A stretch of DNA of 63,972 nt, filler included, from Stramenopiles sp. TOSAG23-2 (lineage: Eukaryota), in NCBI GenBank assembly GCA_900128395.1. It is 11 parts of 11 records of this genome, joined end to end, with 100 filler letters (N's around TTAATTAATTAA, not from the genome) between each part and the next. Parts side by side here need not be neighbours in the genome. Positions count along the whole stretch, not along the records: positions 8,300 to 16,478 come from LT650230.1; 10 more parts are not named here. The stretch is one strand, 5' to 3'. Below the pieces are notes generated by a model. That model made no database searches. It worked only from the letters and a program-made list of their open reading frames with translations, and was not told where the DNA came from. This document shows, one piece after another, positions 15,716 through 16,478 of this stretch. The translations under genes were made by a program, and so were the position numbers. Numbering within the stretch: position 1 is the stretch's first letter; the number at the start of each line of letters is the position of its first letter.

Positions 15716-16478
15716 TTATGTCCTTATCACCATCAGTGCCATCATCCCTTCCACTTGTTGATACCCGTTTGATCCATCTATTTTATATTGTTCTATAGCT
15801 TCTAATTGTGATATCATAGGCATATCACTAAGTTGATTATTAGATAGGAGCAAGCACCATAATGTATTGTTTGTTTTTAATCCATCAATAATACTGTATT
15901 CCACTATCATCAGTAATATTATTATTAGATAGGTTCAAGTGCGTTAATGTATTGTTTGTTTTTAATCCTTCACCAATACTTTCTACATCAGTAATATTAT
16001 TATTATCTAGGTCCAAATCCAGCAATGTATTGTTTTCTTTCAATGCTTCACCAATACTTTCTACATCAGTAATATTATTACTCTGTAGGTTCAATCTCCA
16101 TAATGTATTGTTTGTTTTTAATCCTTCACCAATACTTTGTACATCAGTAATATTATTATTACCTAGGTACAATGTTGTTAATGTATTGTTTGTTTTTAAT
16201 CCTTCACCAATACTTTGTACATCAGTAATATTATTATTGTCTAGGTACAATGTTGTTAATGTATTGTTTGTTTTTAATCCTTCACCAATACTTTGTACAT
16301 CAATAATATTATTATCAATTAGGTACAAGTACTCTAATGTCTTGTTTGTTGTATTGTTTGTATTTAATGCTTCACCAATACTTTGTACATCAGTAATATT
16401 ATTATTACCTAGGTTCAATACCGTTAATGTATTGTTTGTATTTAATGCTTCACCAATACTTTGTACATCAGTAAAAAT
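15716..16478 (-). pseudogene. 3' part of an RI-like/NLRC3-type 28-aa LRR gene (8 units plus C-cap); 5'-truncated; 2-nt deletion frameshift near 15895
   Basis: 84-nt repeats encoding NNITDVQSIGEGLKTNNTLxxLxLxx; reads gga ata cag tat tat tga where the 32736 paralog reads gga ata caa agt att att gat. Confidence 0.8.

Follow-up and report, generated by a model that had tools for sequence, protein, structure and literature searches.

What kind of gene carries a tandem array of leucine-rich repeats (LRRs) that are nearly identical in their framework and different from each other at a handful of codons? This question is raised by positions 15716 to 16478 of a 63,972-base stretch of DNA from Stramenopiles sp. 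TOSAG23-2 (assembly GCA_900128395.1), hereafter the window, which consists of separate contigs joined by N-TTAATTAATTAA-N spacers. An earlier note, made from the sequence alone, proposed that such LRR units form a modular, rapidly diversifying recognition repertoire in a protist. The analysis presented here indicates that the array is probably the 3' part of a member of a very large, lineage-restricted and intronless family of nuclear genes, which would constitute a germline-encoded recognition repertoire with a diversifying concave face.

We found parts of three family genes on three contigs of the window (Table 1). In the gene on contig c2, six of the seven tandem units have 78 nucleotides (nt), the first of them being partial, and one has 90 nt owing to a 12-nt insert; each unit is made of a 57-nt framework, NNITDVQSIGEg/aLKTNNTL, followed by a 21-nt segment encoding xxLxLxx. 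Tandem Repeats Finder (TRF) described this array as 7.1 copies with a period of 78 (15908-16474, score 704), and the start-to-start spacing of the units is 78 nt in 5 of 6 cases and 90 nt in the sixth. The unit, previously taken for an 84-nt cassette, is therefore 78 nt or 26 amino acids (aa) long, with the framework of 57 nt as it had been given and a variable part of 21 nt. The same period was detected by TRF on c3 (24546-24742), nhmmer matched units on c4 (33005-32932 and 32930-32848), and a 19-nt word of the framework occurs 11 times in the window, compared with 0.01 expected from shuffling. The c2 array matches the Pfam families LRR_4 (1.4e-21) and LRR_6 (4.8e-15). All 12 heptads that the earlier note had listed on the three contigs are present, and its codon counts are exact: the first x codon ends in G in 9 of 12 units, the central one in C in 12 of 12, encoding 8 different amino acids, the last one in T in 12 of 12, and CTA is invariant. 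Variation is, as had been claimed, unevenly spread over the unit; leaving aside the divergent first unit, 14 of the 21 last columns are variable, compared with 14 of the 57 framework columns.

The c2 array is followed by a longer terminal unit, which reads NNITDDSGIQ.IIDGLKTNNTL WCLLLSN, and by a C-terminal tail (NQLSD...QYKxDGSNGYQQV...). This tail is conserved, and we observed it in frame on c4 and in several of the twelve family DNA loci that were recovered in addition to the window (L001-L012), namely L002-L005 and L009. The gene start on c3 encodes a family-specific N-terminal domain, HFEDLPGILQIC...INMFAKTCKKFLEY..., and the homologues of its product are 68-90% identical across the whole query.

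Table 1. Positions of the contigs, of the family genes and of the perfect tandem duplications in the window.
Feature	Position	Strand	Description
Contig c2	8300-16478		
Contig c3	16579-24742		
Contig c4	24843-33005		
Longer terminal unit, C-terminal tail and stop	15716..15923	minus	translation
Seven tandem LRR units	15924..16478	minus	one family gene, ends at contig end
Start of second family gene	24204..24533	plus	ATG, Thr/Arg-rich low-complexity stretch, helical N-terminal domain
Divergent first unit TYLHLGN, second unit KVLRLDD, partial third unit	24534..24742	plus	ends at contig end
3' end of third family gene (partial unit MELTLAD, terminal unit KELSLSY, C-terminal tail, stop)	32736..33005	minus	single frame, ends at contig end
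Perfect two-copy tandem duplications	8933-9115, 14590-14769, 33460-33716, 34542-34723, 34803-35023, 51072-51181		TRF

Among 120 listed related proteins, 131 of 134 units are distinct, and 216 different heptads were counted in 262 units from 84 proteins. The entropy reaches 2.2-3.5 bits at positions 20, 21, 23 and 25 of the unit, 1.8 at position 26 and 1.6 at position 12, a framework position occupied by G, A or L; it does not exceed 0.8 bits at any other position, in a set of units collected by a regular expression that itself fixed a few framework residues. The first unit is more constrained (TYLxLxN), which suggests that the units retain some positional identity.

Codon diversity was then determined with 30 units for which DNA was available, from the window and the loci (L005 was excluded as an allele of L004). 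At the five x codons of the heptad, diversity is 0.57, 0.53 and 0.33 at codon positions 1, 2 and 3, respectively, and at framework codons it is 0.05, 0.07 and 0.09. The change is thus concentrated in codon positions 1 and 2, as proposed before; these positions are close to saturated in the x codons and approximately ten-fold more variable than framework sites. Only 2 of 65,780 subsets of five codons show a diversity as great as that of the x codons, and the framework, comprising 19 codons plus the two Leu codons, is near-identical between units. The modal third bases of the five x codons are G, A, C, T and T, found in 23, 24, 23, 25 and 27 of the 30 units, so that the C of the central codon, universal in the window, does not hold to the same extent beyond it (23 of 30). 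Third bases that depart from the mode mostly alter the amino acid, and synonymous departures are found in 11 of 150 x codons versus 21 of 568 framework codons. In pairwise comparisons, the proportion of nonsynonymous differences (pN) at x codons is 0.49, and the framework and the N-terminal domain have proportions of synonymous differences (pS) of 0.12 and 0.10, respectively. As third bases are kept while positions 1 and 2 are changed, we favour diversifying selection over targeted mutation, and selection for amino-acid replacement at the x codons would be the simplest reading of these patterns.

Alternatively, constraint could simply be relaxed, the x positions drifting while purifying selection acts on the framework, with neither positive selection nor a recognition role. 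The x residues are indeed exposed to solvent in any LRR, the Nei-Gojobori (NG86) ratio calculated with the x codons' own pS is near 1 (0.49/0.36), and nonsynonymous variants of the framework are located at a few tolerant positions such as position 12 (G/A/L). However, neutral drift is unable to exceed the synonymous rate, and the diversity at positions 1 and 2 of the x codons exceeds that at synonymous third positions by a factor of 6-10, whether these are taken from the framework, the N-terminal domain or the x codons. Moreover, homogenisation of the 57-nt framework would also erase the interleaved 21-nt segments unless selection kept them. We consequently consider relaxed constraint alone to be unlikely and retain diversifying selection.

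How large is the family, and how are its genes built? The protein encoded on c3, which possesses a start codon, the N-terminal domain and LRRs, matches 218 of 455 candidates at E<=1e-3, and many of these relatives, drawn from ENA, JGI, NCBI, a marine catalogue and a protist proteome collection, are 70-90% identical to it along the full query. Short complete members have 225-279 aa and 3-5 units. Complete uninterrupted genes are present in L003 (331 aa), in L004 and L005 (405 aa) and in L009 (524 aa), where ankyrin repeats separate the N-terminal domain from ten units. The genes are intronless, and the arrays are continuous open reading frames (ORFs). The idea of a large modular family is well founded: the number of units per gene goes from 3 to 10 or more, and there are several N-terminal partners. 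A literature search of partial coverage yielded no description of it.

The loci are dispersed among unrelated housekeeping genes (eIF2B-epsilon, TRAP-gamma, Las1, H+-pyrophosphatase, a polycystin channel and others). Homology between paralogues ends 50-110 nt beyond the coding sequence, and the pS of their N-terminal domain (0.10; 0-0.09 in the main group) is as low as that of the framework (0.12), suggesting that the whole transcribed unit is young or homogenised. The framework is not, then, specially conserved; its proposed service as recombination homology is plausible. Near-duplicate neighbouring units were observed, namely units 3 and 4 of c2 and three KRLELN units in L009. To follow the c2 array in other data, contigs of four sequencing runs were placed on 13500-16478, and 32 of 892 pieces were listed individually; the runs are X1, X2, X4 (a 2024 metagenome) and X15 (oligo-dT RNA). 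Among the pieces listed, X15 contigs map to the LRRs and to the neighbouring gene, none being on 15300-15699. The X15 contigs on the LRRs indicate that at least some family members are transcribed.

A few irregularities were noticed at the 5' ends of the genes. The run of Thr codons followed by Arg codons near the N-terminus (24228-24290, and the starts in L001-L012) differs in length among nearly all paralogues and behaves like a coding microsatellite. Upstream of the c3 gene, at 23476-24213, there is a duplication with a spacing of 305-313 nt; its copies 23809-23908 and 24114-24213 are 89% identical and each comprise some 90 nt from upstream and the initial 10 nt of the coding region, leaving a truncated extra gene start about 300 nt upstream. 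Three predicted proteins from metagenome contigs (P0077, P0086 and P0090) have an apparent frameshift inside the N-terminal domain, which suggests that pseudogenes or assembly errors exist in the family.

We also looked for longer proteins with the c2 array. Their LRRs are 62-84% identical to it and are preceded by other N-terminal parts. According to Pfam, P0188 carries Peptidase_C14 (5e-20), P0194 combines TIR_2 (1e-6, just above the cutoff) with a ResIII/DEAD helicase (ResIII 1e-12), P0173 and P0268 are DEAD/ResIII helicases, P0222 is a protein kinase (Pkinase 4e-43), and P0185 and P0216 have ankyrin repeats. The 26-residue units of the family are found in P0188, P0194, P0173, P0268 and P0222, and the tail in four of these five, P0194 ending before it; the fusion proteins that are not cut also possess the terminal unit and tail of the family. 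Several of them have in common a linker and first unit, KNLTDEDALAIGELLKTNNTL, and two belong to a proteome with the same style of names as entries grouped at 90% with the replication factor C (RFC) protein of the window. No nucleotide-binding oligomerization domain (NOD; NACHT or NB-ARC) was detected by Pfam in the window pieces, in L009 or in the 10 longer family members scanned, and the NACHT-bearing matches to the c2 array are only 30-44% identical, an identity that does not establish family membership. The association of a hypervariable LRR array with effector domains of the death or immunity type, a principle on which NLR-like receptors are built, is our main argument in favour of a role in recognition or conflict. 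It suggests that the array may be a shared immune-like sensor module, and the family probably a sensor module of protist immunity. More tentatively, the host might practise an LRR-based innate recognition that dispenses with NOD, employing on the order of at least 100 germline genes in which the array stands alone behind an orphan domain or is wired directly to TIR, caspase-like, helicase or kinase domains, and in which concerted evolution of the units would leave the array free to go on evolving.

The AlphaFold2 model of a complete member with 35 aligned relatives has a mean pLDDT of 82, exceeding 90 across the LRRs; each unit forms one strand and one helix, and the xxLxLxx heptads match the predicted beta strands, in accordance with the earlier assignment of the x positions to the concave face. 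With the LRR model, Foldseek retrieved NLRP1, ribonuclease inhibitor (RI), tropomodulin/leiomodin and axonemal LRR proteins (about 5e-7 to 3e-5; NLRP1 LRR and RI about 1e-6 to 1e-5), and the best sequence match in the PDB is an RI-like protein (9y6s_4e, 2.4e-30). The LxxLxLxxN core, the alternation of strand and helix and the LRR profile match are those of the RI-like class. Units of that class have 28-29 residues and those of the family 26 (78 nt); in the HMMER alignments to RI-like chains, 2-residue query gaps follow 'ITD' in the units.

The N-terminal domain has about 65 residues and consists of helices only (pLDDT about 71 for the domain modelled alone). It is lineage-restricted, with matches in 16 clusters among 1.84 billion representatives, and the only leads for it in the Atlas are LRR clusters, some labelled F-box or Haptophyta, with scores of at most 0.92. 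Could it be a divergent F-box, the small proteins then being substrate receptors of SCF (Skp1-Cullin-F-box) complexes and the units relatives of the cysteine-containing LRRs of FBXL proteins? By eye, DLPGILQIC...(Y)FDDDILAMINMFAKTxKKFL resembles an F-box, especially in members without the GTATKPGL insert, a unit length of 26 residues and an 'ITD' motif are typical of the cysteine-containing LRR class, and Atlas clusters of F-box/LRR_6 type score 0.84-0.86, as a lead only. On the other hand, Pfam returned no F-box family and no informative match at E values up to 10 for seven members and the window domain, no F-box protein appeared in the PDB sequence profile search, and the domain model gave no fold match above Z 3.7 (the best VIA-align wide score; Foldseek best E 5.2). 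As the LRR matches, in sequence and fold, are to RI, NLR and tropomodulin-type proteins and not to Skp2, we think it improbable that these proteins are SCF receptors.

Is the diversity inherited, or is it generated in each cell? The identity of L004 and L005 is 96-99% along more than 4 kb that include the flanks; the two differ by 2% in the gene as in the flanks, and neither the units nor their order is different. Between them, 6 of 35 x codons are changed (5 nonsynonymous, 1 synonymous), 13 of 147 framework codons (8 nonsynonymous, 5 synonymous) and 6 of 231 other codons (4 nonsynonymous, 2 synonymous); the x codons change faster and the arrays are colinear. We noticed that 17 of these 25 codon differences are clustered within 83 codons (237-319) in the central units, at 2800-3050 of L004, which might represent a tract converted by another paralogue. 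When the 12 loci and the window were searched with a nucleotide profile of the unit, 62 matches were obtained, every one of them within a family gene, plus one extra marginal match (E 0.29). The checks for orphan donor cassettes and for a linked reverse transcriptase or recombinase, recommended in the earlier note, were negative: no orphan cassette was found in these approximately 139 kb, and the 57 ORFs scanned (21 in the window and 36 flanking the loci, a reference with 13 stop codons having been left aside) include no reverse transcriptase, transposase or recombinase. Nor was any change from cell to cell seen in these sequences. Runs X1 and X2 contain identical pieces with identical loose ends. 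Because the genes are complete, the two haplotypes colinear, cassettes and reverse transcriptase lacking from these sequences and X1 and X2 in agreement, we conclude that this is an inherited, dispersed multigene family, diversified neither as variable lymphocyte receptors (VLRs) nor as targets of diversity-generating retroelements (DGRs). The notion of a modular and rapidly diversifying repertoire is therefore kept for its modularity and its diversifying face, and it went too far as to mechanism, since the repertoire looks germline-encoded.

A programmed or somatic diversification, by donor cassettes as in VLRs or by a mutator acting on the x codons (DGR-like retrohoming or a deaminase), would make cells differ from each other. 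Fixed third bases next to variable positions 1 and 2 (NNC, NNT) do recall the codon design of diversity-generating systems, the stop codon of L001 is placed precisely at an x codon, and a very high copy number together with contig breaks hides much of the family. Yet a mutator would strike third bases too, and synonymous variants of the x codons are about as rare as those of the framework; the variable bases include modal C, T and G and not A alone. Together with the germline completeness of the genes, the 62 of 62 unit matches inside them, the absence of cassettes in the loci and window and of enzymes among the 21 + 36 ORFs, the even 2% divergence of L004 and L005 with unit order preserved, and the shared pieces and loose ends of X1 and X2, this makes somatic diversification very improbable compared with germline inheritance.

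The assembly of the arrays deserved attention, since all three of them in the window terminate at contig ends. Among the pieces listed from the four runs on 13500-16478, none spans the c2 array, and loose contig ends are present on both sides of 15895 and at 16350, so that both junctions are unsupported. At 15895 the loose ends belong to X1, X2 and X15, and some contigs have an extra TT at 15894. As assembled, WCLLLSN is in a frame different from that of the upstream c2 units, c2 being 2 nt short near 15894/5 compared with c4, and this frameshift may be an assembly fault. In view of the loose ends and the lack of a spanning contig, we regard the unit order of c2 and the frameshift, and perhaps the 12-nt insert, as unreliable, and the c2 array may be chimeric as it stands. 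The warning that unit order could be misassembled was therefore justified.

TRF also revealed perfect two-copy tandem duplications in the window contigs, with a period of 55-128 nt and 100% identity (Table 1). Contigs of X1 and X2 omit 14588-14679, 14380-14497 and 15394-15496, and when one 91-nt copy at 34542 is removed, two ORFs are joined and the longest open frame passes from 286 to 479 aa. These duplications are probably artefacts of assembly joining that break genes. That the fixed-framework cassettes themselves arose when reads of a small number of diverged repeats were collapsed or joined into chimeras, as the three arrays at contig ends, the unsupported c2 junctions (15895 and 16350) in an array unspanned among the pieces listed, and the perfect duplications skipped by X1/X2 contigs and breaking ORFs might suggest, is hardly credible, for misassembly can scramble the order of units and is unable to make in-frame hypervariable codons, and the identical architecture exists in complete ORFs on contigs of five other assemblies or metagenomes and in hundreds of predicted proteins from several sources.

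Several points weigh against our interpretation of the family as a selected and recombining repertoire. The x codons' own pS amounts to 0.36, so that the corresponding ratio is only about 1.3-1.6; we think that this pS is inflated by multi-step codon paths, because truly synonymous variants of x codons are rare. A partitioned codon model (IQ-TREE) gave relative speeds of 4.40 for the x codons and 0.19 for the rest, which represent a rate contrast only, and a rough one, as the tree is built from paralogous recombining units with 64 parameters for 26 codon sites. Near-duplicate neighbours, those of c2 and the KRLELN units of L009, are the sole sign from which recombination between units is deduced. 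On the LRR and tail region, X1 and X2 have a summed depth of up to 2,000-33,000 per bin, and individual short pieces there, among those listed, have a depth of 600-2,090 versus 43 and 86 on the single-copy flank; summed contig depth is not equivalent to copy number, and the many tens to hundreds of copies that these values might indicate should be taken only as 'many', which would fit with three of the seven 8-kb contigs ending in a family repeat. The fusion proteins come from other records, and their origin in the same organism would rest on the 62-84% identity, the tail and the naming style. The N-terminal domain has no recognisable relative in Pfam, in the PDB profile search or in the fold search. 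Finally, L001 has an in-frame stop at 2782-2784, exactly where one unit has its second x codon (…NNTLE*LYLDNN…), in a gene that is otherwise intact, and the predicted protein P0044 terminates at this stop; it would be a pseudogene, a sequencing error or a truncated variant.

A typical family protein thus begins with a disordered Thr/Arg-rich N-terminus and the helical domain (about 65 residues); a cryptic first LRR is followed by the RI-like LRRs of exactly 26 residues, which number 3 to 10 or more, and a longer terminal unit and a conserved tail of about 35 residues complete the protein. For its evolution we propose the following scheme. Units and genes would multiply by duplication, and unequal crossing-over or gene conversion would preserve their likeness throughout the transcribed region. 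Differing binding surfaces would be maintained by diversifying selection acting on the concave face, and thereby a germline-encoded recognition repertoire, in which the small proteins could act as stand-alone sensors, adaptors or decoys.

Which known systems does the family resemble? In plant NLR or resistance (R) genes, which form large multigene families, an excess of nonsynonymous change is known at the x positions of xxLxLxx, and the family shares this excess at its strand-face x positions. The LRR units of plants, situated after an NB-ARC domain, are irregular and mutually diverged, whereas those of the family are of a single length, with frameworks that are 89-96% identical at the nucleotide level. 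In the germline a VLR gene is only partial, and flanking cassettes serve to complete it somatically; the family genes, in contrast, are complete, no orphan cassettes were found in about 139 kb, and the two haplotypes are colinear. The VLRs of lampreys and hagfish are described as being made of LRR modules whose framework is constant and whose concave face varies (PMC3341825). The same paper attributes to the LRR-ROCO proteins of Ectocarpus fixed-length LRR units with positive selection on the concave face, each LRR being a separate 72-nt exon in clustered ROC-COR GTPase genes with introns and intronic pseudo-units (PMC3341825). The family likewise belongs to a protist lineage and has repetitive LRR units of fixed length; unlike the Ectocarpus genes, it has 78-nt units in one continuous ORF and dispersed genes. 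Pfam detected no Roc or COR domain in the window ORFs, in the flanking ORFs of the loci or in the 10 longer members scanned. RI, the LRRs of NLRP proteins and NOD2 and axonemal LRR proteins are the best sequence and fold matches; the family differs from such RI-like proteins by its 26-residue unit and its extreme internal similarity. It differs from DGRs in that the 57 ORFs include no reverse transcriptase, the variable sites have modal C, T and G, and the loci are many and dispersed.

The closest known analogue is provided by the high internal conservation (HIC) repeats of fungal NLR-like proteins. According to two studies, these repeats, of WD40 type in HET-D/E/R of Podospora and the nwd family and also of ANK and TPR type, are near-identical and undergo concerted evolution, with a few hypervariable sites of the interaction surface under diversifying selection; their number is variable, the repeat module is joined to various N-terminal effectors, and short-read assemblies of them fail (PMC11761791, PMC4986451). 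In the family, too, repeats are alike with few hypervariable surface positions, vary in number, are combined with different N-terminal domains and make assemblies fail. Paralogues have 3 to 10 or more units, and the single allele pair has the same number and order. As for the definition of HIC repeats, which according to Dyrka et al. (2014; PMC4986451) demands that repeats be at least 85% identical in amino acids along 100 aa or more, the mean identity of family units is lower, 0.71-0.80 in five arrays, because 5 of 26 positions vary; the nucleotide identity of the framework is 0.89-0.965 in these five arrays, and each repeat has a few hypervariable positions, apparently under diversifying selection, on the predicted binding surface. 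The differences are that the family repeats are LRRs, which Dyrka et al. report not to have found in fungal NLRs (PMC4986451), that the family members examined have no NOD domain, and that most members are small with an orphan N-terminal domain.

If this interpretation is true, the family would be an independent LRR counterpart of the fungal HIC-repeat NLR repertoires, directed against viruses, parasites or prey, and the design of near-identical repeats with few hypervariable sites would extend from fungal WD, ANK and TPR repeats to LRRs and to proteins devoid of NOD. The way in which free-living marine protists recognise viruses, parasites and prey is almost unknown, and the family is a concrete candidate: it is abundant, expressed, fast-evolving at its predicted binding face and built on an array common to TIR, caspase-like, helicase and kinase proteins. 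Its units are akin to natural 'designed repeat proteins', a fixed scaffold with five variable positions, so that specificities could be mapped by grafting. On the practical side, the family breaks short-read assemblies of its host, and the unit order in such contigs is untrustworthy.

The remainder of the window informs on this host. All contigs except the first have a G+C content of 26-35% and, in a Pfam scan, long uninterrupted ORFs for ordinary eukaryotic proteins, among them ERGIC/ERV, an RTEL1-type helicase, an RFC subunit, PUB-UBX and ankyrin proteins. The 90% clusters of the ERGIC and RFC proteins are represented on many marine metagenome contigs, one of which is a Tara surface scaffold (0.22-1.6 µm fraction), and the c3 sequence is also found in small sequencing runs labelled 'organism A', in marine metagenomes of 2013-2025 and partly in poly(A)/oligo-dT RNA libraries. 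Eukaryotic housekeeping ORFs with such matches indicate that the source is an uncultured marine picoeukaryote; the neighbouring proteins and the housekeeping genes around the family loci agree with the host being a protist, as first supposed. A giant-virus origin was rejected: the motif AAAATTGA, an early-promoter motif of mimivirus, was seen 21 times versus 16.7 expected, thus without enrichment, and the adjoining genes are housekeeping genes of cellular type. No RNA gene was detected in the window, either with Rfam or in a tRNA scan.

The first contig (1-8199) has a G+C content of 41-47%, compared with 26-35% in the others, and is nearly filled by a single ORF of 2,605 aa on the minus strand (372-8189), in which no Pfam family was found; it may come from another genome compartment or organism. 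Of the two ORFs at 27063-28484 and 9020-10576, one encodes a protein-tyrosine phosphatase fused to a methyltransferase domain and the other matches N-acetylmuramidase (PF11860, 3e-9), which may be linked to bacterial feeding or gene transfer.

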